Part shown: in pieces, positions 4,323-25,633 of the stretch
How the letters are laid out: every line of letters starts with the position of its first letter
How positions within the stretch are numbered: the stretch's first letter is position 1
DNA from: Alphaproteobacteria bacterium
Lineage (GTDB): Bacteria > Pseudomonadota > Alphaproteobacteria > UBA828
Assembly (NCBI GenBank): GCA_963422645.2
Contig: CAXXVO010000007.1
Coordinates: 576,001 to 640,000, forward strand
Length of the DNA stretch: 64,000 bases
Reading direction: 5' to 3'
Made by a program: the position numbers and the translations under genes
Notes under the pieces: generated by a model
The model's database searches: none
What the model was told of the DNA's origin: nothing
What the model saw: the letters and a program-made list of their open reading frames with translations, nothing else

Positions 4323-4457
4323 GTAATGCTTCTGTTCTCAGGTGATGGATGGTGATTTCACCGATTGAGTGTCCGCTTCCAGTCTCGTCGGAGAGGCCGC
4401 AGCCAGATGTCCCTCCTGGGCTCGGCCCGCTTCATGTGCGTGTCGTAGCGCCCGCGC
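4323..4457. repeat. left 135-bp terminal inverted repeat
   Basis: Reverse complement of 25499-25633 with 2 mismatches by eye. Confidence 0.93.
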
Positions 4458-4502
4458 AAAAGCCTCTGGTAACGCCGCCGGTGATTCGATATCGTCTCGC
4501 CC

Positions 4503-6941
4503 ATGGCGATGCGAGACGAGGATTTCGGGACGGCGCTGACACCGACCGAGGGGGACGAGGCGATCTGGTCGCCCCCCATGTCGGCGCCGGCGAGCGAGCC
4601 GCGCGACTGGCAATCTCTGTGCGAACAGGCGCAGGCGCGGGCGGAAGCAGCGGAAGCGCGTGCGGAAGAGTTGCGCTGGGCGGAAGTCGCCGCCCGCAGC
4701 GATGCGGGTGCGTGGAAGTCGCGGTTCAAGGCCTGCCGGCAGAGGCTGAGCGAGGCCGAGGAAGAGACCGGGGACCTCCGCCGCGCGGCCAAGGACGTGC
4801 CGGCCTTGCAGGCCGAAGTGGCGCACTTGCAGGAGTTGCTCTCCGAAGCCCGCAGCGTATCGAGCGAGTTCGGCACGATCGAAGCGCTGCGCGACGAGGT
4901 TGCTCAGTTGCAAGAGGCCCTGGCGTCGAAAGCCCGGAAGGACGCGACGGGGCCACTGTCGAGGGAGAATGCCCGGCTCCGCAAGACCCTGGAGCGGTCG
5001 CAGGGACAGAAGGACGAGGTCGCGGCGTTGCGCGGAGAGGTCTCGGCGCGGCGCAAGTCGGAGCGGGCCGCGCAGACGGCGCTGTCGAAGGAGAGCATCC
5101 GGCTGGGCAAGGCGCTGGAACGGACGCAGAAGCAGAAGGACACGGTCAAGGCGCTGCGCGAGGAAGTCGATTCCCTGACCCGGGAGACCCGTCGGCAGAA
5201 CCGGGAGAACGGCCGGCTGCGCCGCGAGCTGGAGTGGTTGCAGGGCATCAGGGCGACGGCACGTGGGTTGTCCGACGAGGTCGAGCTGCTGCGCGCGGAA
5301 CTGGCGGAATACCACGACCAGACGAACTTCATCGATTGGCAGGACAGGCGCATCGTCGACTTGCAAATTGCCCTGGATACGTCGGCCTTCAAGACCGAGC
5401 GGCTGGAGGCCGAGCTTGCCGAACGTCCCCTGCTGCCTGCGGCCTTGAAGAGATTGCGCCAGCAGGAGAAGACCATCGAGTCCCTGCGGGCCCGGATCGA
5501 GACGCTGGAAGAGGAGCTGGCCAAGCTGCGCTCGAGCCGGGCCGTCCTGTCGAAGGCGCTCCACGGCAGGAAGAGCGAGCAGCAGCAGAAGCCCGGTACG
5601 GGGCGCAAGCGCGGCCAGCAACGCGGCGCGCCCGGCCACGGCCGCACCCCGCGGCCCAAGCTCCAGGAGAAGAAGGAACGGCGCAACCCGCCGAAGGATG
5701 CGCGCATCTGTTCCTGTTGCGGCAAGCCCTATGTCGCCAACGGCGAACGCTCCACGAGCCTGATCGAGATCGAGGTCAAGGCCCACATCCGCAGGATCGT
5801 GCGGCCGCGCTACCGCCGGGGCTGCGAGTGTGCGTCCTCGCCCCTGGAAGCGATTGCGCCGCCGGTGCCGCGGCTGTTCCCCGGAACGCTCTTCGGAACC
5901 AGCTTCTGGGCACGGTTCCTGTTCGAACACTGTGGGTGTCTGCGCCCGCTGTGCCGGGTCGCCGCGTGGTACGGGGACCAGGGGCTGCCGGTCTCGCCGG
6001 GTACGCTGGCCAACAGCCTGAAGCGCTTCGTGCCGCTGTTCGACCCGCTCTACGAGGCGATCCTCGCGCACCAGAACACCGCGGCGTTGCGCCATGCCGA
6101 CGAGACCGGCTGGCGGGTACAGGAGTTCCGCGACACCGGCCGTTCGAGCCGCGCCTGGCTGTGGGTCTCGGTCAGCAAGGATTCGGTCTACTACATCATC
6201 GACCCCTCGCGCAGCGCCGAGGTCGCAAGGACCCTGTTCCGCGACACCGCCTGTATCGTCTTCCTGGTCTGCGACCGCTACAGCGCATACAAAACGCTGG
6301 CGCGCGAACTCGCCGGCAAGGTGATCCTGTGCTGGTGCTGGGCACATCAGCGACGCGACTTCGTCGACTGCGCGACCGGGCAGGAGGCGCTGACCGAATG
6401 GTGCCAGGAATGGGTCGAGCGGATCGCGCTCGTCTACCACCTGAACGACGAACGGCTGAAGCATTACGACCCCGCTCTCGAACGCCAGACACGGGCCTTC
6501 GACGCGGCGCAGCGCAAGCTCGGAAGGGCGGTCAAGCGCCTGTTCGCGGACGCCGAGGCGGAACTGGCCGGCCTGCCGGACAAGGACCGTCGGGCAAAGC
6601 CCTTGCGCTCGCTGCTCAACCACCGCGAAGGGTTGTGCGTCTTCGTCGACAATCCCCAGGTTCCGATGGACAACAACGCCGGGGAGCGGGCGATCCGCGG
6701 GCCGGCCATCGGGCGCCGATTGAGCTTCGGTTCCAACAGCGAGGACGGCGCGAAGTTCACCGCGACCATGTACTCCGTCATCGGCACGCTCTCGATGAAC
6801 GGCATCGACGTGCCGCGCTGGCTGGAGGCATGGTTGAAGGCCTGCGCGGAGAATGGCGGCAAACCGCCCGACGACCTGTCCCCATGGCTGCCGTGGACGA
6901 TGAGCGAGGCGCGCAGGCGCAAGTTCACGGCGCAGGAATGA
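4503..6941 (+). CDS. IS66 family transposase with long repetitive coiled-coil N-terminus (812 aa)
   Basis: HADETGW, CDRYSAY, CWAHQRRDF and MDNNAGERAIR motifs; N-terminal repeats LSRENARLRKTLERSQGQKD / LSKESIRLGKALERTQKQKD. Confidence 0.93.
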   Translation: MAMRDEDFGTALTPTEGDEAIWSPPMSAPASEPRDWQSLCEQAQARAEAAEARAEELRWAEVAARSDAGAWKSRFKACRQRLSEAEEETGDLRRAAKDVPALQAEVAHLQELLSEARSVSSEFGTIEALRDEVAQLQEALASKARKDATGPLSRENARLRKTLERSQGQKDEVAALRGEVSARRKSERAAQTALSKESIRLGKALERTQKQKDTVKALREEVDSLTRETRRQNRENGRLRRELEWLQGIRATARGLSDEVELLRAELAEYHDQTNFIDWQDRRIVDLQIALDTSAFKTERLEAELAERPLLPAALKRLRQQEKTIESLRARIETLEEELAKLRSSRAVLSKALHGRKSEQQQKPGTGRKRGQQRGAPGHGRTPRPKLQEKKERRNPPKDARICSCCGKPYVANGERSTSLIEIEVKAHIRRIVRPRYRRGCECASSPLEAIAPPVPRLFPGTLFGTSFWARFLFEHCGCLRPLCRVAAWYGDQGLPVSPGTLANSLKRFVPLFDPLYEAILAHQNTAALRHADETGWRVQEFRDTGRSSRAWLWVSVSKDSVYYIIDPSRSAEVARTLFRDTACIVFLVCDRYSAYKTLARELAGKVILCWCWAHQRRDFVDCATGQEALTEWCQEWVERIALVYHLNDERLKHYDPALERQTRAFDAAQRKLGRAVKRLFADAEAELAGLPDKDRRAKPLRSLLNHREGLCVFVDNPQVPMDNNAGERAIRGPAIGRRLSFGSNSEDGAKFTATMYSVIGTLSMNGIDVPRWLEAWLKACAENGGKPPDDLSPWLPWTMSEARRRKFTAQE

Positions 6942-7392
6942 CCGGCGCCATCGAGTGCCGGTACTACGGGCGCGACTTCACCGCCGAGGAGATGGCGCTC
7001 CTGCGCGTGCTCATCGCCGCCGGCCCACCGCCCAACCGCCATGCCCTGTCGAGGGAGTTCTGCCGGCGCATCGGCTGGTTCAAGCCTGACGGCGGGCTCA
7101 AGGACATGATGGCCAGGGTGACGATGCTGGCCATGCACAAGGACGGCCTGATCGTCCTCCCGCCGCCGAAATGGCCGCGCCCGCCGCGCCCGCCGCGTCG
7201 GCCCATGGTCTTCGGACCCGACACCGAGCCGCCGGTGCATCCGGCGCCGACATCCCTCGACGCGGTTCGCCCGCTCGATCTGCGGCCTGCCGTCCGCTAC
7301 AGCCGCGAGGGCAAGCTGTGGAACGAGTTCGTCGCCCGCTACCACTATCTCGGCTACAAGACCCTGGTCGGCGCCCAGATGCGCTACGCCGT
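6938..7392 (+). pseudogene. DUF4338 (DruA-like) protein, fragment 1 of 3
   Basis: The ATG overlaps the transposase stop (ATGA); LWNEFVARYHYLGYKTLVGAQMRY motif. Confidence 0.85.
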
Positions 7393-7399
7393 TGTAGCC

Positions 7400-7442
7400 G
7401 GCCGAAAGTCTTTGCGAATCGCGGCCGGAAGTCTTTGCGAAT
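7400..7442 (+). repeat. two adjacent putative transposase-binding sites (Mu R1/R2-like)
   Basis: GGCCGAAAGTCTTTGCGAAT at 7400 and GGCCGGAAGTCTTTGCGAAT at 7423 (23-bp period). Confidence 0.85.
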
Positions 7443-7564
7443 GGCCTGGAAAATCGGCTGGTTTTCGGGGCTGAATCGGGCTGGAAAAACCGGCCTGTGC
7501 ATGGGCCGTGAAGGAGCGCTGCGCGGGGGGTTCAGGGCCCGTGCACGGGCGGTGCGTGAGGGTT

Positions 7565-8446
7565 TCAGGCGCGGTCGGGACCGGGGCGGGCGCCGGGGCG
7601 GCACGGGCGTTCGAGTTCGGCCTTCCACCATTCGGGGTCTTCGACGGCGCGTTCTGCGGCGTCGTATCCGTCGTGACCGGTCCATCTTCCGGGGTCGGCG
7701 TCGGCGTACCATCGGCCTGCGCCGCGGTGTCGTTCGAGGGCGTCGTCGATGCGGGCGATCCCGTCCGCCGGGCGTCCCCGGCAGAAGCGCTCGAAGAAGG
7801 CGTTGAGGCGGCATCGGGGGCAGCGTCCGCAGGGCTCTGCCGCGACGGTGCATCGCCAGGTGAGCGCCTCCAGCCCGGGCGGGAGCAGGGCCTGGAGCAT
7901 GAAGCGCCCGGCGACGGGTCCGAAGGGGTCGTCCCGCGACGGCGGCCACTGCGCGCCGTCCTCCCAGCCGGGGAAGAAGGGGAGTTCCATGGGGACGGCG
8001 GTGCGCGCGCGGTAGGCCGGATGCCAGTACATGCGGTGCATGTCGTCGGCGGTGTCCCACGAGGTGATGCCGAGCATCACCCGGTCGGCGCGGTGCCGTT
8101 CGGCCTCGTCGGCGTGGGTTGCGTACCGGTCGAGGCCCCAGGGACCGAAGGTGGGGTCGCAGACGCCCTCCCACCCTCTCCCGTCCCTGATCGGGTATCC
8201 GGCGCCGGCGTCGAGGTCGAGGCGCAGGGCGTCGCGCGACACGTGGCGCACGGGCCGGACGTTGCGGGAAAGCCAGTCTGCGACGGCCTCGCTTGCGGCC
8301 TGCCCGCGGGCGATGCGCTCCGGCAGCTCGCGGGCGGGTTCGCGGTAGCAGGAGAGGACGACCTCGTCTTCGGTCTCGCGCAGGACGAGGAGGGCGAGGG
8401 CGGTGCTGTCGATGCCGCCGCCTGCGGGGACGAGGGTGCGGCGCAT
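7565..8446 (-). CDS. QueC-like PP-loop (adenine nucleotide alpha-hydrolase) protein
   Basis: N-terminal PAGGGIDST PP-loop and C-terminal TWRC-x6-CGRCPRC zinc site, as in the QueC family. Confidence 0.7.
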   Translation of the reverse strand: MRRTLVPAGGGIDSTALALLVLRETEDEVVLSCYREPARELPERIARGQAASEAVADWLSRNVRPVRHVSRDALRLDLDAGAGYPIRDGRGWEGVCDPTFGPWGLDRYATHADEAERHRADRVMLGITSWDTADDMHRMYWHPAYRARTAVPMELPFFPGWEDGAQWPPSRDDPFGPVAGRFMLQALLPPGLEALTWRCTVAAEPCGRCPRCRLNAFFERFCRGRPADGIARIDDALERHRGAGRWYADADPGRWTGHDGYDAAERAVEDPEWWKAELERPCRPGARPGPDRA

Positions 8447-8451
8447 CGCGA

Positions 8452-9222
8452 TCAGCCCCACTCGATGACGATATAGCCGGCGGAGACCGGGGAGGGCACG
8501 GTGAGCTGGGTGTGGCGGCTGACGCCGCTTGCGCCGGCGGGGGCGGAGGAGGTTCCGTCTGCGCCGTCTGCGCCGTTGCGTCGGCCATACGCTCTCTTGC
8601 CGCCCTTGCCGCCGCGCGCCGTGCCGCCGAGGACGGCGGTGTTGCTGCCGTCGCCGCCGTCCCTCAATCGCGCTCCGTCCACGCCGTTGTCTCCCACGGT
8701 CAAGCTGTAGGAGGTGCCCGGCGAGACCGCGATCTCGAAGTAGATGAAGCCGCCTTCGCCGCCGTCGCCGCCCGTCCAGCTGATCGGCGCGGCGCCCCTG
8801 TTGTATTCGAAGCCGCTATCGCCGGCGCCGTCGCCGCCGTCGCCGCCCCGCAACTGCACGCGCACGCGGGTCACGCCCGCGGGCGCGCGCCAGTACCCGG
8901 AGCCGGGCGAGGTGAAGGTCTTGCGCCCGCGCGGCGTTGGCCGGGGCGCGGGCTCGGGCCCGGGACGCGGCGGCGCCGTGCGCTCGCTGAGGTTGGCCAG
9001 CCGCGTGCGCTCGGCGGCGGTGAATACCTCGCCCCGCATCTGGCGGAAGGGGTGCAGGCCGGAGCCGTCGAGGGTGGCGACGCCGTTCGGATCGCCGAAG
9101 GCGTCGATCATGGCGTTGATTGTGTCGGCCATGGCCTTGATGGCGGCGCGGGCGTGGGCGGGCGAATCGCTGCCCTGGTCGAGGTGGGTGGTGTCGATCT
9201 TCCGGGTGGGCCATGCGGTCAT
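8452..9222 (-). CDS. phage tail-fibre-like protein with glycine-rich domain, copy B
   Basis: Conserved N-terminus, Pro-rich linker, then a TFTSPG...APAGVTRVRVQLRGGDGG Gly-rich domain; phage context. Confidence 0.65.
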   Translation of the reverse strand: MTAWPTRKIDTTHLDQGSDSPAHARAAIKAMADTINAMIDAFGDPNGVATLDGSGLHPFRQMRGEVFTAAERTRLANLSERTAPPRPGPEPAPRPTPRGRKTFTSPGSGYWRAPAGVTRVRVQLRGGDGGDGAGDSGFEYNRGAAPISWTGGDGGEGGFIYFEIAVSPGTSYSLTVGDNGVDGARLRDGGDGSNTAVLGGTARGGKGGKRAYGRRNGADGADGTSSAPAGASGVSRHTQLTVPSPVSAGYIVIEWG

Positions 9223-9243
9223 GGGGTTTCCTTTCGTGATCGC

Positions 9244-9375
9244 TCAGCGCGGCGGAGCGGCGATCCGGGCGCGGTAGCAGGAGAGGACGACCTCGTCGTC
9301 GGTCTCGCGCAGGACGAGGAGGGCGAGGGCGGTGCTGTCGATGCCGCCGCCTGCGGGGACGAGGGTGCGGCGCAT
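9244..9375 (-). pseudogene. truncated duplicate of the QueC-like gene 5' end, fused to the 3' end of the upstream tail gene
   Basis: MRRTLVPAGGGIDSTALALLVLRETDDEVVLSCYR then ARIAAPPR*, homologous to AHIAAPAS* ending at 10170. Confidence 0.8.
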
Positions 9376-9380
9376 CGCGA

Positions 9381-10148
9381 TCAGCCCCACTCGACGACGA
9401 CATAGCCGGCGGAGACCGGGGAGGGCACGACGAGCTGGACCTGCTTGCTCGAGTTGCTCACACTCGACATGAAGGGGGCGTAGGAGTTTCCGTCTGCGCC
9501 GTCTGCGCCGTTGCGGTTGTATTGCGCTCTCTTGCCGCCCTTGCCGCCGTACGCCTTGCCGTAGAGGAAGGTGGTGTCGCCGCCGTCGGCGCCGTCCCTG
9601 CCGCGCGCTCCGTTCGCTCCGTTGCCTCCAACGATGACGGGGTAGGTCCCGCCCGCCCTGACCGCGATATCGAAGTAGATGAATCCGCCGCCGCCGCCCT
9701 CGCCGCCACGCCAGGTGGTGGTCCTCGAGTCGCCCCTGCCGCTGACGGTGCGGCTATAGTCGCTGCCGTCGCCGCCGCTGCCGCCCTGCAACTGCGTGCG
9801 CACGCGGGTCACGCCCGAGGGCACCTTGAAGTAGAATGTCCCGGGCGTGGTGAAGGTCTTCCGCCCGCGCGGCGTGGGCGTGGGCGCGGGACGCGGCGGC
9901 GGCGTGGTCTCGCTGAGGTTGGCCAGCCGCGTGCGCTCGGACGCGGTGAACACCTCGCCCCGCATCTGGCGGAAGGGGTGCTCGCCGCCGTCGTCGAGGG
10001 TGGCAACGCCGCCCGGATCGCCGGCGGCGTCGATCATGGCGTTCAGGGTGTCGGCCATGGCCTTGATGGCGGCCCGGGCGTGGGCGGGCGAATCGCTGTC
10101 CTGGTCGAGGTGGGTGGTGTCGATCTTCCGGGTGGGCCATGCGGTCAT
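9381..10148 (-). CDS. phage tail-fibre-like protein with glycine-rich domain, copy A
   Basis: Paralog of 8452-9222 with a near-identical first ~75 aa and a diverged C-terminal domain. Confidence 0.65.
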   Translation of the reverse strand: MTAWPTRKIDTTHLDQDSDSPAHARAAIKAMADTLNAMIDAAGDPGGVATLDDGGEHPFRQMRGEVFTASERTRLANLSETTPPPRPAPTPTPRGRKTFTTPGTFYFKVPSGVTRVRTQLQGGSGGDGSDYSRTVSGRGDSRTTTWRGGEGGGGGFIYFDIAVRAGGTYPVIVGGNGANGARGRDGADGGDTTFLYGKAYGGKGGKRAQYNRNGADGADGNSYAPFMSSVSNSSKQVQLVVPSPVSAGYVVVEWG

Positions 10149-10169
10149 GGGGTTTCCTTTCGCGCCCAC

Positions 10170-10441
10170 TCAGCTCGCCGGCGCGGCGATATGGGCGCGG
10201 GCGAGGCCGAAGCAGAGGTACTTGACGGTGGGAATCTGCCCCCGTTCCCAGGTCCAGGTCCACTCGACCTGGACCACGCGACCGGTAATCGCGTCCCCGG
10301 CGGCGTAGCCGGTCCAGGCGGCGTCGTCGAGGTCGTCGCGGTAGTCGGCGGCGCGCACGCGCACCGTCGGCTGGACAGGGGAATCGGACTCCCAGGTCAG
10401 TAGCGAGACGACGCCGTCCTGGCCGAGGGCCGCCGGCATGG
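10170..10441 (-). pseudogene. C-terminal remnant of a phage gene (probably tail) cut by IS21
   Basis: Open frame up to the IS21 end; located directly upstream of the fibre gene. Confidence 0.5.
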
Positions 10442-10548
10442 TGTTGTTAAGCGTGGAAAAGTGACCCCCTATTGGGGGTGATCGGCGTCCAAAATTGACC
10501 CCCTTGGATTTGTGTCCATGAACACACCTCGTCGTTTGGACGGACGGG

Positions 10549-12075
10549 GTGGTGGGGGAGATGCTGGTTGTGGAAACGATCGCGAAGATCCGTCGGGATC
10601 ATCTGGTGAAGGGCGTTCCGATCAAGAAGCTCGCCCGGGATTTGAGGGTTTCCAAGAACACGATACGCAAGGTGGTGCGGGGCGATGCGACCTCGCACAG
10701 CTACGAGCGCAAGATCCAGCCGATGCCGAAGCTTGGGCTGTGGGTGGAGGAGCTTGAGCGCCAGCTGAAGGCCAACGAGAAGAAGGCACGCAAGGATCGG
10801 CTGTCTCTTCTGCGGATTCATGAAGACCTTGTGTCGCTGGGCTACAAGGGCGGCTATGACGCGGTTCGCCGCTATGCCAGGGCCTGGCGGCGCCGGTGGC
10901 GGCTGTTGTCGCCGGCGCAGGCCTATGTGCCGCTGATCTTCGATCCCGGCGAGGCCTACCAGTTCGACTGGAGCCACGAGTACGCGCGTCTGTCGGGCGC
11001 GACGACCAGGGTGAAGGCGGCGCACATGCGGCTGTGCCACAGCCGGATGTATCTGGTCCAGATCTTTCCCCGCGAGAGCCAGGAGATGGTCTTCGAGGCG
11101 CACGAGCGTGCCTTCCGCTTCTTCGGCGGGGTCTGCCGGCGGGGCATCTACGACAACATGAAGACGGCGGTGAGCACGATCTTCGTGGGCAAGAAGCGGG
11201 ACTACAACCGCCGCTTCCAGGAGCTGTGCTCGCACCATCTGGTGGAGCCTGTGGCGTGCACGCCAGGGGCTGGCTGGGAGAAGGGGCAGGTCGAGAAGCA
11301 GGTGGGTGACCTTCGCGGCCGCCTGTTCGTGCCCATCCCGCGGGGCCGCTCCTACGCCGAGATCAACGAGTGGCTGATGGATCGGTGCATCGAGGACGCC
11401 AAGAAGCATCCGCATCCGACAATCCCGGGCAAGACGGTGTGGCAGGTGTTCGAGGAGGAGCAGCCCTTCCTGATGGCGTATCGCGGCCCCTTCGACGGCT
11501 TCCATGCCAGCGAGGTGTCGGTCTCGAAGACCTGTCTGGTGCGCTTCGACAACAACCAGTACAGCGTCGCGGCCCGCGCCGTCGGCCGGCCGGTGGACGT
11601 GCGGGCCTATGCCGATCGGATCGTCATCCGCCAGGACGGCGAGACCGTTGCCGAGCACCCCCGCAGCTTCGGGCGCGGCCGGTTCGTCTACGATCCGTGG
11701 CATTACGTGCCGATCCTGACGCGGAAGCCCGGCGCGCTACGCAATGGCGCGCCCTTCAAGGACTGGCAGTTGCCCAACGCGCTCGGCCGCCTGCGAACCC
11801 GGCTCGCGGGCCACGACGACGGCGACCGGCAGTTCGTCAAGGTGCTCGCGGCGGTGCTGGAGGACGGACTGGAGGCGGTTGAGGCGGCCTGTGCCGAGAC
11901 GCTCGACTGCGGTGCCTGCAGCGCCGACGTGGTGCTCAACATCCTCGCCCGGCAGCGCCAGCCGGCACCGCCGGCAATCATCCCGACGCCCGAGGGCCTG
12001 CAGCTTCGCCACAAGCCGGTAGCCGACTGTCAGCGCTACGACAGCCTGAGGGAGGCCGGTCATGGAGCGTCATGA
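10549..12075 (+). CDS. istA: IS21 transposase IstA
   Basis: [14 protein letters not shown] and WEKGQVE DDE motifs. Confidence 0.95.
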
Positions 12076-12790
12076 TGTGCTGGAGATGATGACCCAGCTG
12101 AAGCTCGCAGGTATGCGCGCCGCTTACGACGACATCCTTGCCGACGGGCTCAAGCGCCGCCATCCGGTGCAACAGATCATCGGTACGCTGCTGCAGGTCG
12201 AGATCGCCGACAAGAGGGCCCGCTCGATCAAGTACCAGATGGCCTCCGCCAAGCTGCCGACGGTCAAGGAGCTGGCCGACTTCGACTTCGCCGCCTCGCC
12301 GGTCAACGAGCCCCTGATCCAGGAGCTCGCCGGCGGCGGCTTCCTCGAGGGCAAACGCAACATCGTGCTGGTCGGCGGCACCGGTACCGGCAAGACCCAT
12401 CTCGCCGTCGCCATCGCGCGGTCCTGCATCCGCAAGGGCGCGCGCGGCCGGTGCTACAACGTCGTCGACCTGGTCAACCTCCTCGAGGCCGAGCTTCGCG
12501 CCGGACGCCAGGGCCGCACTGCAGACCAGCTCGTCCGCCGCGACTTCGTCATCCTCGACGAGCTCGGCTACCTGCCCTTCGCCCAGGCCGGTGGGCAGCT
12601 GCTCTTCCATCTGATGAGCCGGCTCTACGAGCGCACCTCGATCGTCATCACCACAAACCTCGCCTTCGGCGAATGGCCATCCGTCTTCGGCGACCCCAAG
12701 ATGACCACAGCGCTGCTCGATCGCCTCACCCATCATTGCGAGATCATCGAGACCGGCAACGAGAGCTGGCGCTTCAAGAACCGCTCCTGA
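12062..12790 (+). CDS. istB: IS21 helper ATPase IstB
   Basis: [24 protein letters not shown]. Confidence 0.95.
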
Positions 12791-12960
12791 CCCGCCGCCG
12801 GCCTCCCTTGTGAGCGCGCGCGGTCTTTCAGCGGGGATCGGGGCCTGATCCGCTCGGATTTGTTGAGGTTTTGGGGCGGGTGCCCCTCGGCGAACTTGCA
12901 AGAAGTTCGCCGGGGGGCTTTGTCTCGTGGTGACGGTCACAATCGCCAGAGACGGCCCCA

Positions 12961-13578
12961 ATGTCGCACAACATTTTCCGCCACTCCATGCTTTGCAACG
13001 CCCTGGTCTGGGCCTGGCTGCGCGAGGTCGATGAGGCCGAGGCGGCGCGCTGCCGCGAGGCGGGCTGCCGACACTGCCCCGGCAAGCTGCACAGCGCGAC
13101 GTATCCGCGCAAGCCGTACGGTCTGGCAGCCGAGTTGAGGGAAGAGGGCACGCGGCGGTTCAGCTTCTGCTGCGCGGATTGCCGCCTGCGAGCGACCCCA
13201 CCATCGGTACGATTCTTCGGGCGCCGCTTTTATCTGGGCGCCCTGTTCGTTCTGTTGAGTGCACTGGTTCTGAGAGGCGGGGTGCGGTTGCAGACGATCA
13301 AGCGGAAGTGGGGGGTCTCGGTCGCCACACTGCGCCGCTGGCGGAAGTGGTGGCTGGAGGCGTTCCCGGCGACGGAGCCCTGGGGAGCGAAGCGTGGCGA
13401 ACTGGTGATGCCACCCGAGGAGGTGCCGCTGCTCTTCGTGCTGCGGCAGATGCGGGGCGGACGCTTCGGTGAGCGTCTGTTCCTGAGCCTGATCTGGTTC
13501 AAGCCGTGGACGGGCTATTGCGGGCTCGGCGATGGCTCGGCGCCGCCCGCAGAAAGTGTTCCTGTCACGCCCGGATAG
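12961..13578 (+). CDS. Cys-rich (zinc finger) + HTH hypothetical protein
   Basis: CRHC and CCADC pairs; VSVATLRRWRKWW HTH-like segment; first gene of the element. Confidence 0.65.
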   Translation: MSHNIFRHSMLCNALVWAWLREVDEAEAARCREAGCRHCPGKLHSATYPRKPYGLAAELREEGTRRFSFCCADCRLRATPPSVRFFGRRFYLGALFVLLSALVLRGGVRLQTIKRKWGVSVATLRRWRKWWLEAFPATEPWGAKRGELVMPPEEVPLLFVLRQMRGGRFGERLFLSLIWFKPWTGYCGLGDGSAPPAESVPVTPG

Positions 13579-13627
13579 GGCGTTCTACATGGGCATCTCT
13601 CCGATGCGGCGAGGGAGGGATGCCGGA

Positions 13628-15104: not shown

Positions 15105-15888
15105 ACCGCGAGCTGCTCACCTTCTACGGGCTCAAATGGAACCCCTTCGCCACCGACCTTCCGGTCGACAGCCTCATGGTGAGCCCCGCCGTCGACAGCT
15201 TCTGCCTCAGAATCGAGCATCATCTTGTGCGCCAGGGCGGCTTCGCGTTGATCGCCGGCGAGCCCGGCACCGGAAAGAGCGTGGCGTTGCGCGTGCTCGC
15301 CGACCGCCTCGGCCGCTCGGACGGGCTCAGGGTCTGTGCCATCACCCACCCCTCTTCCAGGCTGTCCGACTTCTACCGCGAGATCGGCGGGATGTTCGGC
15401 GTCGACCTGATGTACAACAACCGCTGGGCCAGCTTCAAAAACCTGCGCGAGCGATGGCTCACCCATGTCGACGACACCCGCATGCGGCCCGTGGTGCTCA
15501 TCGACGAGGCCCAGGAGCTGCTGCCCTCGGTGATCTCCGAGATCCGCCTGCTGGCGTCCACCGACTTCGACTCGCGCGCCATCCTCTCGGTCGTCTTCGC
15601 CGGCGACAGCCGCCTGATCGACAGGCTCCGCCAGCCCGACTTGCAGCCCATCGCCTCGCGCCTGCGCCAGCGCCTGGTCATGACCCAGGCAGACGCCGGC
15701 GACCTCGCGGCCCTGCTCGACCATCTGGTCGAGCAGGCCGGCAATCCGGGCCTCATGAGCGCAGAGCTCAAGGACACCCTGGTCACCCACGCCGGCGGCA
15801 ACCCCAGGGCGCTTACCGTCATGGGCGACATGCTGCTCGCCGCCGGCGCCGAGAAGAACCGCGAGGTTCTCGACGAGAAGCTCTTCAT

Positions 15889-18047: not shown

Positions 18048-18093
18048 TCATGGAGATCCTGGGCGAGCCCGCCAAGCCGAAGAGGGCACGGCG

Positions 18094-19092
18094 GTGAAGG
18101 GCTTCCCGACACGGGCGCCGATGCAGCTCGAGGATCGCCCCCGGGCGCAACAGTGGATGGTGGACACGCTGTGGGCCGAGCAGGCCGTGGGCATCGTCGG
18201 CGGCGAGCCCAAGTGCGGCAAATCCCTGCTCGCGCTCGATCTCGCCGTCGCCGTGGCCACCGGCGTCCCATGCCTGCGCCACTACCGCCCCAGCGCAAGC
18301 GGCACCGTGCTGCTCTTCGCCGCCGAGGACGCCGGCCACAGGGTGCGCAAGCGTCTGCAGGGGATCGCCCGCGCCGCCGCCACCCCCTTCGACGAACTCG
18401 ACATCGCCGTCATCGACGTGCCCACCCTGCGTCTCGACCAGCGCATCGACCGTCAGCGCCTGCAGGAGACCGTGGAGCGCATCGAACCGCGCCTCCTGAT
18501 CCTCGATCCCCTGGTCCGCCTGCACAGCGTCGACGAGAACGCCGTCGCAGAGATCGCCCCCATCCTCGGCTTCCTGCGCGAACTGCAGCGCCGCTTCGAA
18601 ACCGCCGTCCTCCTCGTCCACCACGCCCGCAAGAGCGGCGGCACCCGGCCGGGGCAGGCCCTGCGCGGGAGCAGCGAGCTGCACGCTTGGGGTGACTCAA
18701 ATCTGTACCTGCGCCGGCGCGACAAGAAGATCGTCATGACGGTCGAGCAGCGCGACGCCCGGGGCCTCAACGACATCGAGCTGGAACTCGTCGACGGCGG
18801 ACATGGGCCGGCCTTCCGTCTGCACCAGGACGCGGCAGATGAAGACAGGCACGAGCCCGCCACCGTCGAGCAGCGCGTCTTCAAGGCGATCGAGCAGGCC
18901 GAAAAGCCGCTCTCGAAAGCCCAGATCCGCTCACGCGCCGCTGCCCGCAACGCCACCGTCGTTGCCGCCATCGAGAGCCTCACCAGGGAGGGGCGCATCG
19001 AACGGGCGCCCAGGGGTGGCTATCGCCTCGCAGCCGCCGAGGCGCACCGGGAGCCGCAATCCCCTGCCGCCATCAACGGAAGTGCGGGATGA
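18094..19092 (+). CDS. AAA_25/RepA-like RecA-fold helicase with C-terminal winged helix
   Basis: GTG start overlapping the ExeA stop (GTGA); GGEPKCGKS, LLILDPL, LLVHHARK, LRGSS. Confidence 0.85.
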   Translation: MKGFPTRAPMQLEDRPRAQQWMVDTLWAEQAVGIVGGEPKCGKSLLALDLAVAVATGVPCLRHYRPSASGTVLLFAAEDAGHRVRKRLQGIARAAATPFDELDIAVIDVPTLRLDQRIDRQRLQETVERIEPRLLILDPLVRLHSVDENAVAEIAPILGFLRELQRRFETAVLLVHHARKSGGTRPGQALRGSSELHAWGDSNLYLRRRDKKIVMTVEQRDARGLNDIELELVDGGHGPAFRLHQDAADEDRHEPATVEQRVFKAIEQAEKPLSKAQIRSRAAARNATVVAAIESLTREGRIERAPRGGYRLAAAEAHREPQSPAAINGSAG

Positions 19093-19094
19093 GG

Positions 19095-19151
19095 CGTTCC
19101 CGTTCCCGTTCCCGGAACTCTTAAGCGTTGAAGGGTACAGGAACGGGAACG
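19095..19151. repeat. CGTTCC direct repeats with inverted GGAACG copies (possible origin)
   Basis: CGTTCCCGTTCCCGTTCCCGG...GGAACGGGAACG flanking a more AT-rich spacer between the helicase and primase genes. Confidence 0.6.
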
Positions 19152-19194
19152 CCGTCAGCCTCCCTTCCAAGCAGACCTTCGCCGGGACCCGGCA

Positions 19195-20064
19195 ATGAGC
19201 GGCGGCGATCCCCTGGCCACCTGCCGCAACATCCCCCTCGACCGGGTCGCCGCCGCCCTCGGCTACCGCAGAGACCCGACCGACCGGGCGCGCTTCAAGC
19301 GCGGGGGCTCGGTCATCAGCATCAACGGCGAGAAGTTCTTCGATCACCTGCGCGGCACGGGAGGGGGTGGCGCCATCGACCTCGTCATCCATGCGACGGG
19401 ATGCCGCTTCCCGGAAGCCCTCCGCTTCCTCGGAAGCCATGAGGGGCGGAGGGAGATCACCACCATCCCAGCCGCCCCGCGACGCCTGCGGCTGCCAAGG
19501 CCCAGTCCCCGCGCCTGGCCCAGGGTCCGGGACGCCCTCATCCGCCAACGCGCTATCGGCACCGACGTGCTCGAAGCCTGCCACGGCCGAGGCCTCCTCT
19601 ACGCCGATGACAGGATCAACGCCGTCTTCATCTGCCGAAACGCCAGCGGGCACACGACCGGCGCCGAGATCCTCGGCACCGCGCCGCAGCCCGGAACAAA
19701 ACGCTTCAGGGGCATGGCCCCGGGATCGCGCAAGGCGCGTGGCGGCTTCTGGCTCCACTGCGACCGAAACCAGCCCGCCCTCGTCATCCTCACCGAGAGC
19801 GCCGTCGACGCCATCTCTGCACGAAGCCTGCGCGTCGAGGGGACGCGCGAGAACGGCGCCGTCGTCGCCTCAACCGCCGGCATCGCCAGCTCGGTCCCGC
19901 CCTGGATCAAGGAGTGGAAGCCACGTCGCATCGTCTGTGCCTACGACGCAGACAGCGCCGGCGACACTGCCGCCGAGCATCTCGTGCTCAACGATCCAAG
20001 GGTGAAAAGGTTGCGCCCACGACACGCCAAGGACTGGAACGAGATGCTCCTGCGGTCTCGATGA
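19195..20064 (+). CDS. TOPRIM-domain primase-like protein (DUF3991-like)
   Basis: GGGAIDLV N-terminal motif, LTESAVDAIS, CAYDAD, KDWNE. Confidence 0.85.
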   Translation: MSGGDPLATCRNIPLDRVAAALGYRRDPTDRARFKRGGSVISINGEKFFDHLRGTGGGGAIDLVIHATGCRFPEALRFLGSHEGRREITTIPAAPRRLRLPRPSPRAWPRVRDALIRQRAIGTDVLEACHGRGLLYADDRINAVFICRNASGHTTGAEILGTAPQPGTKRFRGMAPGSRKARGGFWLHCDRNQPALVILTESAVDAISARSLRVEGTRENGAVVASTAGIASSVPPWIKEWKPRRIVCAYDADSAGDTAAEHLVLNDPRVKRLRPRHAKDWNEMLLRSR

Positions 20065-20352
20065 AAGCCAGGCCACTCACCGCTCTCGCAGATCAACCAA
20101 GCGCCGCATCACGAACATCAAATAATCCGAAAACCGCACCATCAAATGCTGGGCGCACGCTCACCTTGCGGCCCGGTTGCCCCGGTGGGCCAACAGGGAC
20201 CCCCCACGCGGCTTCGCTCCGCGTAGCGCAGGGCGCCACACGAAGCCGCGCGGGTCCCCCCTATTGGCTACCGGGACAACCTCCGCCGTGCCACTCAGGG
20301 GGGTCAATTTTGCACGCCGATCGGGGGTCAGTATTGAAAGCCGATTGACACC

Positions 20353-21003
20353 ATGGACGCCCCCGTCAACGCCGCCATGCGCCTCGATGCCCCCGACTTC
20401 CGCATCGCCGCCGTCCTGCCCCGGGTCGACACCCGCCAGCTCCTCGCCATGCGATCCTTCCTCACCGACAGGATGAAGGACGTCTCCGCCGCCCTCGCAG
20501 ACCGCGTCAACACCCAGATCGGCCTCGCCATGACCGGCTCGGTCCCCGTCGGCGAGACCACCGGCCGCGTCGCCGCCATCCTCAAGACCGGCGGCAGGTC
20601 CCGCGCCCTGACAATCGTGCGGACCGAGCTCGGCCGCGCATACTCCATGGCCGGACAGCAGCGCATGGAGCAGGCCGCCGGGATCCTGCCGGGGCTGAGG
20701 AAGCAGTGGCGACGCTCCGGAAAGCTCAGAAGCCGCATCGCCCACGACGCCGTCGACGGACAGACCAGGGAAGCCGCCAGGCCCTTCGACGTCGGCGGCG
20801 CCACGCTCATGTACCCCCGCGATCCCGCCGGACCCGCCGCCGAGACGATCAACTGCGGATGCCAGTCGCTGCCATGGATGGAAAGCTGGGAGGTCGAGAA
20901 CCCCGGGCGAAAGCCGTTCTCCGACGAGGAGATCGCACGCGACCCGCGGCGCGCCGATCTCGAAGGGAAGGAGGCCGGCGCGGGGACAACGCCGGCATCG
21001 TAG
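20353..21003 (+). pseudogene. phage minor head/head morphogenesis protein (Mu gpF / SPP1 gp7-like), 5' truncated
   Basis: IVRTE, KQW, R..H...DGQ, PF, YPRDP and INCGC motifs; begins at the IS21 end. Confidence 0.85.
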
Positions 21004-21127
21004 ACCGGGCGAGGCGAAGCCCCGCGCCGCACCCCGATTTACCGGCGAATCCGCACCCCCGGAACCGCCCCGATTTACAGGCCTTTCAGCACCCCTGAAA
21101 CGCCCCGAAAATCACCGTTTCCAGCCA

Positions 21128-21266
21128 ATTCACGGCCCTTTCCGGGCCGGATTCGCAAAGACTTTCGTCCGGCCCGCCAGACCCCGGAAACGCCGCCAAC
21201 CCCTTGACCGTCCGCCATCTTCCGCCTTCTTCCCGGCATCTTCCGGATTCGCAATGACTTTCGTCC
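21128..21266 (-). repeat. spaced transposase-binding sites (Mu L1/L2/L3-like)
   Basis: ATTCGCAATGACTTTCGTCC at 21247, ATTCGCAAAGACTTTCGTCC at 21151 (76-bp spacer), and a degenerate copy at 21128. Confidence 0.8.
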
Positions 21267-21278
21267 CCCTACAGCCGT

Positions 21279-21538
21279 CCACGACCGTGACGGCCGGCCC
21301 ATCGCCATGCTCGGCTTCAGCACCGCGGCGCGAAAGCTCGCACCCCGCGACCGCTTCATCGGATGGACGCCGCAGTCGCGCGAGAAGAACCTCCCGCTTG
21401 TGATCGACAACCCGAGGTTCCTTATTCTGCCCTGGATCGTCATCCCGAACCTGGGCTCGCACATCCTCTCGCTCGTGCGCCGGCAACTGCCCGGCGACTG
21501 GGAGGCGCGCTTCGGAGCGCGCCCGGTTCTGGTGGAGA
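21279..21538 (+). pseudogene. DUF4338 protein, fragment 2 of 3
   Basis: LGFSTAARKLAPRDRFIGW...NPRFLILPW...NLGSHILS...DW; in frame with fragment 1 across the TSD. Confidence 0.88.
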
Positions 21539-21727
21539 TGAAGGCTTCATAATGCTTCTCCGTTGTGCAGGTGGGCGGGCGTTTCTACCGCATTGATAGA
21601 AAAGGCGGTTTGGATTCCGTTGTTGCCGCCGCGGCGACCTTTACATCGTGCCGGACGTGATTTTCCAGTATCGCACGTTGGAGGTGCGGATCTGCATCGG
21701 GCGTTTTGCCTGACGGTCCGGGCATGG

Positions 21728-23908
21728 TCACCCCCCATCACCGTTGAGCCCGCGCAGCAGCGGCAGTTCGTCCTCGACCGGCAAACGCACATACAGTCCG
21801 CGCGTCTTGCCGCGGGTCACATGGCAGCTGTCCAGCCTGCCCGCCTTGATCCGTTCCCAGACCGTCTGCCGCGTGACACCCAGACGATCCATTGCCACAG
21901 CGAGGGGAACAAACCCCTCCGGAGGCGCCTCACGAAAGCGCTCGCGCAAGGTCGGGGTCATCCGGATCCGAAGAGGAGCACCTTCGATATCGGGCTGGGC
22001 AACCGGAACCAGCCCCTCGCGGATCCAGCGATAGATGGTGTCATCCGAGACTCCGATCTCCTTCGCCACATCGGCAACGCCCATGAGCACCGGCTCGTCC
22101 CCGTCGGGCTGGTAGGGCGCAATGCCATGGCGGCGACGCAGGCTGCCAACAAGCTCGGCCGTGAAATCCAGACCCCGTGCTGTGCGCCGTCCCTGGCGGG
22201 TGAGAACCTTCGCGGTCTCCCGGTCGTTGTAAAAGCATGACAGCTTGCGCACGAGCTCGACCGTGCTGCGCTCATCGCGCCGGGGTGTCGGAGAGCCCGC
22301 GAGCATCGGCAAAGTGATCTCGTCGATCTGCCCGCCACGCCAGCGCAATGTTGCCATGATCTCACGCTCCTGTCGCGCAAGCTCGATCGTCACCTCGTCG
22401 AGGAGGCAGGCGAGCAGGCGCTTGCGCTCGCGCATGGTCGTCGACGACGCCCCCCAGACCTGCGACAGGCGCGCGCCGAGACCCTCGAAAACCGCCGGGG
22501 CAGGGGCCGCGGGCTGACGCGCCCGTGCCGCCTCAAGCGCTTCCTGTGCAGCCTTCTCGGCGCGAAGCGCCTTCTCCCACTCGCGCTCCAGCGTTGCCGC
22601 AATCAGACGGTTGTCGGGATCGACCTGCTTTTAGCGCCGCTCGGCAAGCCGCGCCTCGTACCGGCAGTGCTCAAGATCCAGCTCCCAACGGCGCAACGCG
22701 CGCAGGCCGCGTTCAGCAACATCACAAGCCGCCTGCCGGGCCGCCTCCACCCCCGCCGGCGTGACCGCATCGAGAAACAGACGGGCAACTTCCGCATCAA
22801 CGCGCTTGCCGCCTGTCGACCAACAACCGCCGCGCCGGCGCGCAGCATCGCGCTTGCGGCACTCATACCCCCAGCCCGTCTTGCTGTAGTAGACGGTCAT
22901 CGGCAATCCGCAGCCGCCGCAGACCGCGAGACCCTGGAGCAGAGCCGACCCTTCCCGCGCCGCGCCGCGGGCTCCGTCCGGAGCCATGTGGTTGCGGGCC
23001 AGCTGCTCCTGTACTTCAAGCCATTCTGCCCAACTGACATATCCCTCATGCTTCTCCGGCTGAAGAATATCCCAGCGCTCCTGGACCGGCCGCAGCGGCG
23101 CACCGTGACCAACGCCGCGTTTGAAGCCGTAGGCATAGGCGCCGCCCATCGCCGGGTTGGTGAGGATGCGGTACACCCGTTCATAGCGCGCCGGGCCCCA
23201 TTCCAATGCTGCCCCCGGGTGCCGGCGAGAGGGAACATCCTCGCCCGCCTCACGCAGCAGCATCGTCGCCTGGCGGGCCGAACCGGCTTGCCGAAAACGC
23301 GCAAAGACCGTTGCAATCGCCGCCTGAACCCGGGCATCCGGATCCTTCCGCAAAGTCGAGCCATCCCGCACAAATCCGATCGGAACGCGCGAGTACAACT
23401 CGCCACGAAGCGCCTTGTTCCGCTTTCCGCCCTCCATCCGGGCGCGAATAAGAGACAGCTCAGCGGCGCTCACGGTTCCCTTGATCCCCAGGACAAGGGA
23501 GTCGTCGTCCCGGCTCGGGCAGTAGATGTGGCAGTCCTCAACCAGAACCGTGTCGTGCCTGCGACATAGATCGAGAAGCTGAAACCATTCCATCGTGTTC
23601 CTGGCGAGCCGCGAAACCTCAATCCCGAAGATGCCCCCGACATGGTCCCGGGCGATCAGGTCGCACATCTCCCGAAAGCCGCCACGCTCGCCGCGCGCCT
23701 TCTCGCTTGCGCTCTCGCCAAGATCGGCGTCGATCGTCCGTATCCGCTCGGCCGGCCAGCCAATCTCCCGGGCACGCTCGCCAAGCGCGTATTGGCGCAG
23801 CTGCGATTCCTGGTGCGCGTTCACTTGCAAGGGTGTCGACTGGCGAACGTAGACAACTGCAAGACGCTCAAGATGACGCTGGGTGATCTTCGACGGATCG
23901 ACCGTCAT
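21728..23908 (-). pseudogene. large serine recombinase with one in-frame nonsense codon (TAA at 22631-22633)
   Basis: VYVRQST, EVSRLARN, LLQGLAVCGGCG; reads AERR*KQVDPDNRL where Tyr is expected; C-terminal HTH repeats. Confidence 0.9.
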
Positions 23909-24059
23909 CGGCCGCCTCCCGATCCGCAATCCGAACCATCAGATCGGCCAGACCCTGCACGACGCGATCCCGGTCCGGAGCCGGAAACGCCAGCCACCGG
24001 TCCCGGCGCTCCTCCCACTCCATCAGCGCGATCAGCGCCAACTCCTGCTCCGCATCCAT
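23868..24059 (-). CDS. small accessory protein overlapping the LSR start
   Basis: MDAEQELALI...LADLMVRIA; overlapping small-ORF arrangement, also seen in the second LSR element. Confidence 0.45.
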   Translation of the reverse strand: MDAEQELALIALMEWEERRDRWLAFPAPDRDRVVQGLADLMVRIADREAADDGRSVEDHPASS

Positions 24060-24123
24060 CGCGCCTGAGTTCCCTCTCATCAAGGTCATTCAGAAGATTA
24101 AGGAGGGTGAGGAAATCAGACAA

Positions 24124-25174
24124 ACCGCTTATGCACATGGCTCCGGTTCGATCAACATGCTGTAGGTAAGGGGTTTTGCATTGGTGGCGATGCGGAAGAG
24201 CGAGCGGAAAGCAGCGTGGCGGGTTTTGCGGCGGTTGAAGCGAAAGGCGAACTCATCGAGATAGGCCTGCAGATGCTTGCGGCGCAGCCCGTGGTAGACG
24301 CCTCGCGCCCATCCTTTGAGGTTGGAGAAGACTTGGTGGATCCACGGCAGGACGAGGTGAGCGGCGGTCTTCCCGACGACATGGACATTGTGGCGATCGG
24401 CGGGGACCGCAGCGTAGCCGGACCAGCCGTCGGTTTTCGCGATGGCGTCGGGATCGGCGGCGGTTTCGACGAAGTGTCCGAGGTCGGCGGCGCCGTAGGA
24501 GGAGATTTCGGCCAGCCGCAGGCGGCCCGGGATGGTTCCATCCCCCAGTTCGATGGCGCCGACGATGAGCATCTTGCCGTCGTGGCTGCGTCCTTGCCCT
24601 CCGGTGGGAGGATCGTCTTTGGTCCGGAATGGAAGGCTGGCCTCGTCGATTTCCACCAGGCCCGACAACGGGTTGCGCTCGGGGTCGACCATGCTGGCGC
24701 GCAGCTTGTGGGCGAGCAGCCAAGCGCTGCGGTAAGAGCCGATACCGAGCTGTTTCTGGAGCTGCAGGGCAGAGATGCCGTTGGAGTGGGTCGCCATCAG
24801 GTAGGCGGCCCAGAACCAGACGGTGAGCGGCAGCTTGCTGGCGTGCAGGATCGTCCCGGCCGTCACCGAGGTCTGCCGGCGGCAGCCGGCGCACTCGAAG
24901 GTGTGTGCTTTTCTGCGCAGCGCCCATCCCTTTTCATGGCCGCACGCGGGACAGACGAAGCCGTCCGGCCAGCGCATTTCGATCAGCCAGGCGGCGCAGG
25001 CGTCATCGTCCGGGAACATGTGCTGGAAGGCGAGGAGGCTGTCGGCGACCTGTTTCATGTGGTGGCTCCGTCGGCAGGAACGTATAGGCAACATTCTACC
25101 CGTTCTCCCGCCCTAACCTCAACCTCAACATCTGGTGGCAAACTCTCGCGACCGGAGCCATGTGCATAAGCGGT
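24124..25174 (-). mobile_element. IS1595 family insertion sequence
   Basis: IR ACCGCTTATGCACATGGCTCCGGT; 8-bp TSD TCAGACAA (24116-24123, 25175-25182). Confidence 0.93.
24129..25058 (-). CDS. IS1595 family transposase
   Basis: Zn ribbon CPACG/CAGC, VEIDE, KTDGWSGY, YLDEFAFRFNRR. Confidence 0.95.
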   Translation of the reverse strand: MKQVADSLLAFQHMFPDDDACAAWLIEMRWPDGFVCPACGHEKGWALRRKAHTFECAGCRRQTSVTAGTILHASKLPLTVWFWAAYLMATHSNGISALQLQKQLGIGSYRSAWLLAHKLRASMVDPERNPLSGLVEIDEASLPFRTKDDPPTGGQGRSHDGKMLIVGAIELGDGTIPGRLRLAEISSYGAADLGHFVETAADPDAIAKTDGWSGYAAVPADRHNVHVVGKTAAHLVLPWIHQVFSNLKGWARGVYHGLRRKHLQAYLDEFAFRFNRRKTRHAAFRSLFRIATNAKPLTYSMLIEPEPCA

Positions 25175-25400
25175 TCAGACAACTCTCCGATCAGGCGTGG
25201 TGCATCCTCGGGACGGGCTCCAAGGCTCGTCCATGCCGCTGGTATCCAACAACAGCTGCCGTCCGGCATCCGAACCTTCAGAGTCCGGCCCCCGTAACCT
25301 CCTTTGCGCCGATCGAGAATCTCGATCGCCTCACCGTCGAAAGGATGCTTGTAGCGTCGAATGCGAACGGGCTCAGGAGCCTCGGAAGCCTGCAAGATAG
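25175..25400 (-). pseudogene. DUF5372-like accessory gene of the LSR element, split by IS1595 (continues 23905-24123)
   Basis: HPFDGE...PDGS...IPAAWT motif; the frame is restored across the TSD. Confidence 0.55.
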
Positions 25401-25422
25401 TAGTCTGTGACGTTCGTGGAGA

Positions 25423-25598
25423 CCTTCGTCGAGACGCCCCGCTACACCGGCGCCGTCTACAAGGCATCCGGCTGGATCCGCGTCGGGACCACCCAGGGGC
25501 GCGGGCGCTACGACACGCACATGAAGCGGGCCGAGCCCAGGAAGGACATCTGGCTGCGGCCTCTCCGACGAGACTGGAAGCGGACACTCAATCGGTGA
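25423..25598 (+). pseudogene. DUF4338 protein, fragment 3 of 3
   Basis: TFVETPRYTGAVYKASGWIRVGTTQGRGR...KDIWLRPL; the three fragments total 891 nt = 296 aa + stop. Confidence 0.88.
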
Positions 25599-25633
25599 AA
25601 TCACCATCCATCACCTGAGAACGGAAGCATTAC
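25499..25633. repeat. right 135-bp terminal inverted repeat
   Basis: Inverted copy of 4323-4457; includes the last ~33 codons of the DUF4338 gene. Confidence 0.93.

Follow-up and report, generated by a model that had tools for sequence, protein, structure and literature searches.

We analyzed a 64,000-nucleotide stretch of an alphaproteobacterial genome (Alphaproteobacteria bacterium, GTDB lineage UBA828; G000:C8:576001-640000), hereafter the window, whose positions serve as coordinates unless another contig is named. Between positions 4323 and 25633, the window carries an insertion sequence (IS) that is broken by two nested inserts. When both inserts were removed and the remaining pieces were joined by script from their coordinates, a 3541-bp element of the IS66 family was recovered, which encodes a DDE transposase followed by a protein with the domain DUF4338 (Pfam PF14236, named DruA). 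Direct reading placed the termini at GTAATGC, beginning at 4323, and GCATTAC, ending at 25633, with an 8-bp target duplication (ATAGGGGT) on both sides. A repeat tool reported terminal inverted repeats of 136 nt at 99% identity (4322 to 4457 and 25499 to 25634); the true arms are about 135 nt long, the tool's figure including a chance match between the single bases that flank the element. The transposase exceeds the cut-off of the NCBIfam model NF033517 (180 bits), which identifies it as an IS66-type DDE enzyme, and is laid out as a coiled-coil N terminus of about 370 residues, a Cys-rich stretch, and a DDE domain at residues 462 to 751. Neither tnpA nor tnpB was found upstream of the transposase gene, where only 180 nt separate its ATG from the left end of the element. 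The GTAA repeats and 8-bp duplications are those of IS66 elements, the duplicated sequence being different at each of three copies in this genome (window, C13, and C6). The element sits among the single-transposase (ISBst12-like) IS66 forms, not outside the IS66 family.

The second gene starts with an ATG at 6938 that overlaps the transposase stop codon as ATGA; it is therefore probably translationally coupled to the transposase gene. Its three pieces, when joined, give 891 nt encoding 296 amino acids with no internal stop, and they match PF14236 colinearly (model positions 56 to 86, 91 to 177, and 187 to 225). The gene runs into the right inverted repeat, which contains its 3′ end; the left repeat is the reverse complement of the last ~33 DUF4338 codons plus 35 nt. 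In the window, the transposase reading frame is intact, whereas the copy is dead for the second gene because the two inserts split it. An earlier annotation made from the sequence alone (the first-pass annotation) had described this 3541-bp element with its GTAA...TTAC ends, 8-bp duplication, 812-residue transposase, and ATGA-coupled 296-residue gene, and had assigned the joined reading frame to DUF4338. Reading and joining bore out each of these points (Table 1), and an intact copy elsewhere in the genome matches PF14236 at E = 2e-38.

Table 1. Features of the IS66-family element and its inserts, in window positions
Feature	Position	Strand	Evidence
Left target duplication ATAGGGGT	4315..4322		Direct reading
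Left terminal inverted repeat, ~135 nt, GTAATGC start	4323..4457	+	Repeat tool (136 nt, 99%); ends of three copies aligned
IS66-family DDE transposase, 812 aa	4503..6941	+	PF03050 3.9e-58; NF033517 288 bits
DUF4338 piece 1: winged-helix-like N-domain and start of GNAT domain (predicted)	6938..7392	+	PF14236, joined ORF
Insert 1 and second GCCGT copy (21274-21278)	7393..21278		Ends, duplication, gene content
DUF4338 piece 2: GNAT core (predicted), R195/N206/S209 equivalents	21279..21538	+	PF14236 6.4e-18, model 91-177
Insert 2 (ends 25415) and GTGGAGA (25416-25422)	21539..25422		Ends, genes, probe matches
DUF4338 piece 3: ETFV strand, Y248 helix, basic C terminus; stop TGA 25596-25598	25423..25598	+	PF14236, joined ORF
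Right terminal inverted repeat, overlapping DUF4338 3′ end	25499..25633	-	Repeat tool; ends of copies aligned
Right target duplication ATAGGGGT	25634..25641		Direct reading

Copies with like ends, which the first-pass annotation had thought worth seeking, were present in the same genome. Three are near-identical, and diverged or partial ones lie on C16, C10, C8, and C5. An intact copy of 3532 bp at C13:253005-256536, with 97% identity across its first 3070 nt, has its own 8-bp duplication (CAGAATTC) and encodes a DUF4338 protein of 293 residues that scores 132.7 bits against PF14236 (cut-off 27). The copy at C6:339315-345680 corresponds to the window copy minus insert 1 and minus an IS1595 element, and is flanked by the duplication TCGCATGC. 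Transposase homologs were detected in 14 of 20 genomes of the same genus, compared with 1 of 20 genomes searched outside it, and element copy numbers in the relatives are high.

To determine how firmly the second gene belongs to the element, we compared related loci from other genomes. DUF4338 lay directly behind the transposase gene in all 11. In each of them, the transposase gene ends at the coordinate where DUF4338 starts, which agrees with the ATGA overlap seen by direct reading of the window. Inverted repeats enclosed just these two genes in five of the nine related loci tested, giving elements of 3165 to 3749 bp that therefore have room for two genes only; the repeats were 25 to 29 nt long in two loci and 146 to 201 nt in three, with 8-bp duplications at L020, L024, and L028. 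In the other four of the nine (L018, L019, L023, and L025), inverted repeats were not found. Across related loci, the DUF4338 proteins are 79 to 92% identical, whereas whole transposases are 54 to 61% identical, the catalytic part of the latter being closer (mostly 64 to 82%). The ratio of nonsynonymous to synonymous substitution rates (dN/dS) for DUF4338 had a median of 0.24 (range, 0.15 to 0.36; 55 pairs from 11 intact genes). Because it lies inside the inverted repeats, is kept in every related locus examined, and is under purifying selection, DUF4338 is an integral gene of this element, as the first-pass annotation had proposed; the finding that would have spoken against this proposal, close transposase homologs that usually lack the gene, was not obtained. 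Contigs of two metatranscriptome runs cover relatives at 90 to 99% identity (28 to 29 of 30 bins), although contigs from RNA libraries do not prove transcription; such contigs skip 146 nt within the transposase coiled-coil region. That region (4503 to 5600, residues 1 to 370) is a long, repetitive coiled coil with weak SMC/Rad50-type coiled-coil matches, and transposase length varies from 713 to 864 residues among relatives.

The pairing is more general than the first-pass annotation could see. The module of about 290 residues recurs with DDE transposases of at least five families (IS66, IS4, Tn5-like, ISAs1, and ISLre2), either fused to them or adjacent, and three such architectures coexist within this one genome: a separate gene in the IS66 element, an IS4 fusion, and an ISAs1-type fusion. 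The IS4-family IS is unrelated to the IS66 element, measures 2.47 kb, and is present in 11 copies of at least 99.4% identity (L011:499-2974, that is, G000:C5:386153-388626, and 10 more). It encodes a single 737-residue protein with an N-terminal DUF4338 at residues 88 to 272 and an IS4-type DDE domain at 418 to 639; its ends read CAATGGCATTCA... and an apparent 9- to 10-bp duplication reads AGGTGCTGG(C). The DUF4338 genes of the IS66 and IS4 types share only ~35% identity. The ISAs1-type fusion (L016:1810-4695; G000:C3:34809-37694) combines DUF4338 with DDE_Tnp_1_assoc and DDE_Tnp_1, and is cut by a canonical 532-residue IS66 transposase gene on the opposite strand.

To examine the pairing beyond this genome, we surveyed public proteins longer than 513 residues and listed the best 120 relatives. 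PF14236 was combined with PF03050 in 67 of them, with the Tn5-type PF14706 (with or without PF02281) in 33, and with PF01609 in 5; the remaining 15 comprised 6 with PF14236 alone, 4 with other domains, 4 with PF03050 and no PF14236 on record, and 1 with no domain. Some long proteins at 80% identity or more may represent gene-call read-through across the overlap. The solid set of fusions is a class of ~800 to 810 residues at 40 to 47% identity, which recurs in many clusters and sources. Relatives of the module as a whole form 8407 clusters at 50% identity (E ≤ 0.001). A search of plasmid DNA gave three weak matches, two of them under the PGAP names "DUF4338 domain-containing protein" and "ISAs1 family transposase."

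Across the phylum, PF14236 was present in 18 of 300 other genomes sampled, and 26 loci were scanned, of which 25 were distinct. Fifteen of the 25 were transposase linked: IS66 with DUF4338 upstream (L035, L037, and L052), ISLre2/UPF0236 (L031 and L032), Tn5-like (L033 and L038), ISAs1 fusions (L039, L040, L041, L043, and L056), and DDE_Tnp_1 or DUF772 nearby (L047, L051, and L053). Four encoded long proteins without a transposase (L044, L045, L046, and L054), and six, several of them on very short contigs, had no partner in the DNA examined (L036, L042, L048, L049, L055, and L057). The ISAs1 fusions keep only the GNAT part of the module (model positions ~100 to 290). We built a maximum-likelihood tree from 69 full-length modules, leaving out 12 partial rows (the ISAs1 fusions, L038, L042, L053, L055, P0213, and two true-DruA fragments). 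Partner labels were clustered on this tree: they change 15 times, compared with 41 times on average for shuffled labels and a lowest possible number of 8. The Tn5 fusions grouped in one clade (support, 99/94), and IS66 partners occurred in at least three places. Because deep branches are poorly supported and the tree was rooted arbitrarily, it does not give the order of events.

An AlphaFold2 model of the DUF4338 protein (predicted local distance difference test score, 91.6) suggests two domains: a winged-helix-like domain of a hairpin and three helices at residues 1 to 70, and a predicted GNAT fold at residues 104 to 293. Foldseek returned a probability of 1.0 to many GNATs, and the best solved structural match was Mom of phage Mu (PDB 8bv8), whose family modifies adenine in DNA by means of aminoacyl-tRNA. 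In a viral library, small phage proteins led the matches (E = 6e-9 to 1e-6), one of them named Mom. A profile-profile comparison with eight Mom-family phage proteins (Prob 79.8%, E = 1.5e-5, 158 columns) aligned H133/Y134 of DUF4338 with H58/Y59 of Mom, R195 with R111, N206 with N121, S209 with S124, G245 with G156, and Y248 with Y159. Among 81 modules drawn from every partner type, 78 have a residue at position 209 (Ser in 75, Thr in 3), and His133 (78 of 80), Tyr248 (77 of 78), and Glu235 (78 of 78) are likewise conserved. The predicted Mom-type fold thus comes with the serine and the HY motif, and judging from these alignments, Mom-like putative catalytic residues are kept in all transposase contexts. 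Among 36 relatives, Mom was the only Pfam family besides DruA that DUF4338 proteins matched repeatedly. According to PMC13219725, Mom moves glycine from Gly-tRNA(Gly) onto double-stranded DNA, acetyl-CoA is not its donor, and the S124A variant is reported to be catalytically dead.

The module differs from Mu Mom in adding the predicted N-terminal domain and in having two conserved helices inserted between strands 3 and 4 instead of the helix-turn-helix-like insert of Mom (residues 175 to 209); nor does it belong to the Pfam Mom family at cut-off. Its β4-α3 loop reads PNLGS or PNLAS, compared with PRNSES in Mom, and the canonical Q/RxxGxG/A motif of the coenzyme A (CoA) loop was not seen on reading this loop. 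A sequence search of the PDB with the protein and its profile found no relative. Complex prediction for the transposase core (residues 360 to 812) with the DUF4338 protein gave scores of 0.00, 0.46, and 0.00, which are neutral either way.

Because PF14236 is also the family of DruA from the Druantia defense system, the first-pass annotation had called the protein DruA-like. The description holds at the broad Pfam level, where the element protein and true DruA both exceed the cut-off, and fails beyond it. On the PADLOC DruA1 model, the element protein scored 18.9 bits (E = 1.6e-4), and other IS-type proteins gave nothing or E = 5e-6 at best, in contrast to 967 and 592 bits for two true DruA proteins of the phylum sample (L044 and L046, both 702 residues). 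True DruA is also longer, at ~700 residues compared with 293 for the IS protein. The IS-type profile gave no alignment with four true-DruA segments (Prob < 1%), nor did those segments with Mom (Prob < 1%); both comparisons are weak, with four rows each, and the Pfam model links the two groups. In two genomes (L045 in G042 and L054 in G086), a DruA-type protein is fused to SspF/DndF-like C-terminal parts (1077 and >1177 residues), which fits PMC10853773, where DUF4338 is independently called a GNAT domain and listed among the N-terminal domains of DndF. A preprint on YprA (10.1101/2025.09.15.676423) contains no occurrence of DUF4338, GNAT, or transpos*. By sequence comparison, the IS form and true DruA are distant relatives, distinct subfamilies of one Pfam family. 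These data lend no support to the transposon origin that the first-pass annotation had suggested for the Druantia component.

The inserts that split the gene in the window are themselves mobile. Insert 1 (7393 to 21273; ends TGTAG...CTACA, 5-bp duplication GCCGT) is a multicopy transposon of the Tn7/Tn5053/Mu type whose left end was matched (at least 80%) at 17 places in the genome. It carries genes for rve plus AAA_22, AAA_25, DUF3991-Toprim, MuF-like, and glycine-rich proteins, as well as subterminal repeats of GAAAGTCTTTGCGAAT, and nested within it are an IS21-family element (10440 to 12810; 68 genome places) and an IS4-like element (~15889 to 18047; 13 genome places). Insert 2 (21539 to 25415) is a 2.8-kb element flanked by GTGGAGA, with genes for a large serine recombinase (22634 to 23929, minus strand) and an HTH_17 protein (21731 to 22435, minus strand). 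Within it lies an IS1595-family element (24123 to 25175; 1053 bp, perfect 25-nt inverted repeats), at least 80% of whose length is matched at 19 genome places.

Probes from the ends of insert 2 matched the genome 11 times on the left and 11 times on the right (C5, C6, C8, C10, C13, and C14). All 11 left junctions, six in IS4-type and five in IS66-type genes, fall after the same DUF4338 codon (after ...PVL[I/V]E and before TFV...). The target site carries ...GAGACCTTCGT..., and 10 of the 11 right-end matches end in ...GACGTTC followed by GTGGAGACCTTCGT. Insert 2 therefore appears to be a site-specific serine-recombinase element whose target is the ETFV-coding sequence, the best-conserved motif of the module. 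The first-pass annotation was correct in recognizing two nested inserts, but this one is not a random insertion. Its presence in both the window and the C6 copy is consequently uninformative about which event came first, and we dropped the C6 copy as proof of transposition after the second gene was split. About 47 nt upstream of insert 2 (21492 to 21538, and likewise in the C6 copy) are identical to IS4-type genes and not to other IS66-type copies, and the IS66-type copy at C8:743k, identical elsewhere, has retained its own sequence in that stretch; gene conversion or co-transfer with insert 2 could lie behind this identity. The genome is unusually rich in insertion sequences, and a repeat of ~1.89 kb (G000:C5:389130-391020) recurs at more than 45 other places in near-identical copies.

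The window thus holds a two-gene IS66-family element, and on balance we favor the view that its second gene encodes a transposition-linked, probably catalytic partner protein. Gene 1 encodes a DDE transposase with a long coiled-coil N terminus, and gene 2 encodes a module of ~293 residues predicted to combine a winged-helix-like domain with a Mom-type GNAT domain. We consider it likely that this partner acts together with the transposase at the DNA of the element and is not passenger cargo, and, with somewhat less assurance, that the module is an active group-transfer enzyme. A tentative proposal is that it acts on nucleic acid, most probably DNA of the element itself or of the target; the module would then write a self-encoded mark gating transposase binding or expression or, alternatively, one that shields transposition intermediates. 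The most specific version is rather doubtful: DUF4338 may be a Mom-type DNA-marking enzyme, dependent on aminoacyl-tRNA or acyl-CoA, with which insertion sequences of five or more DDE families label their termini or target sites, as an epigenetic switch or a shield for intermediates, with the GNAT domains of DruA and of DndF/SspF-type defense proteins as offshoots. A possible analogy is offered by IS10 and IS50, which are controlled by host Dam methylation. In these elements, transposition is coupled to replication through a DNA mark placed by the host at the transposon ends and at the promoter of the transposase gene, whereas the element described here would bring its own enzyme.

If gene 2 were instead cargo that aids the host or the element outside transposition, it would be a stand-alone DruA-like defense protein or a Mom-like anti-restriction DNA modifier. 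The inclusion of Druantia DruA in PF14236, the anti-restriction function of Mom, the nearest fold, and the existence of separate-gene forms in both gene orders are in keeping with this idea. Nevertheless, we regard it as improbable, since in-frame fusions to transposases in many lineages, at either terminus, are unexpected for cargo, and since the end of the gene is built into the inverted repeat. Defense in particular is disfavored by the low DruA1 score, 18.9 bits against 592 to 967 for true DruA, by the lack of DruB-E neighbors in an element that has no room beyond its two genes, and by the absence of any of the three MZB/DUF1998 helicase genes of the genome within 30 kb of a DUF4338 copy. 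The first-pass annotation had left open whether the gene is a transposition accessory or stand-alone defense; the fusions to several transposase families favor a transposition partner, and the DruA1 comparison argues against defense. A gene without function, a decaying passenger or miscalled reading frame, would be conceivable in a genome of high G+C content, where spurious long reading frames are many, and the window copy is indeed broken. This explanation is scarcely credible given the Pfam match of the intact copy, a dN/dS of 0.24, the 8407 clusters of relatives, and the confident AlphaFold2 model.

Two further alternatives keep the protein within transposition. It may be a protein acetyltransferase or regulator that acylates the transposase or a host nucleoid protein, or senses acyl-CoA or charged tRNA, and thereby tunes transposition, its substrate not being DNA. 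This seems unlikely, because Mom, and no protein acetyltransferase, is both the best match and the only recurrent second Pfam match, and because the CoA-loop motif was not seen on reading the β4-α3 loop (PNLGS). Alternatively, gene 2 could encode a noncatalytic DNA-binding subunit whose winged-helix-like domain and basic C terminus bind the long inverted repeats and either bring in the transposase or repress it, the GNAT fold serving only as a scaffold. The predicted N-terminal domain fits such a role, as do the long repeats (134 to 201 nt) in part of the subfamily and the faster evolution of the N-domain than of the GNAT core (dN/dS, 0.30 versus 0.23), as would be expected of a coevolving specificity domain. 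However, the ISAs1 fusions retain the GNAT part only, and the near-invariance of the Mom catalytic positions in every context would be needless for a scaffold, so we give this alternative little credence.

Several observations nonetheless weigh against a catalytic transposition partner. IS66 elements with the transposase alone exist (the ISBst12 group), so DDE chemistry needs no such protein. Many DUF4338 genes in this genome are interrupted, indicating that the host tolerates their loss. The two copies with a split DUF4338 (window and C6) lie at different sites with their own duplications, a pattern that may reflect transposition in the absence of an intact gene in cis but is explained equally well if the site-specific insert 2 hit each copy separately. 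The kinship with Mom is moderate, its signal coming from the eight-sequence Mom profile only: a single Mom sequence compared with the DUF4338 profile gave nothing significant by hhalign, hmmsearch, or global hhalign, and the element's own protein did not match the Pfam Mom model PF25680 at E ≤ 0.05. Weak matches to that model occurred in 10 of the 36 relatives (best E = 0.0023), all below cut-off, as with L036 at 25.9 bits (cut-off 27.1). Finally, the functional reading is a computational one, drawn from sequences and predicted structures.

ISBst12-type IS66 elements are among the closest known systems, and the element has in common with them an IS66 DDE transposase, GTAA termini, an 8-bp duplication, and the absence of tnpA and tnpB. 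In contrast to them, it adds the DUF4338 gene overlapping the transposase stop codon, a coiled-coil extension of ~370 residues (812 residues in total, compared with 532 in the canonical IS66 transposase of this genome), and repeats of ~135 nt that include coding sequence. Canonical IS66 elements (tnpA-tnpB-tnpC) likewise have accessory genes coupled to the transposase gene; however, the accessory gene here follows the transposase gene, and its product has no relationship to TnpA or TnpB.

The usual view is that an IS requires little more than its transposase; only a few families have known accessory proteins. Here, one module of ~290 residues accompanies IS66, IS4, Tn5-like, ISAs1, and ISLre2 transposases. 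A full-text literature search, with ISfinder outside its scope, found no paper tying DUF4338 or PF14236 to transposons, and the accessory module appears to be undescribed in the transposon literature searched. Among the 25 distinct loci of the phylum sample, 15 were transposon linked and 4 were true DruA, so annotation by the Pfam name "DruA" will wrongly assign many IS genes to defense. Insert 2 represents an unusual case of a mobile element that appears specialized on the accessory gene of another. From the putative kinship with Mom comes a specific hypothesis about chemistry that is amenable to bench tests. If the DNA-marking reading is true, part of a defense system and a very common transposon accessory would share one biochemical activity.

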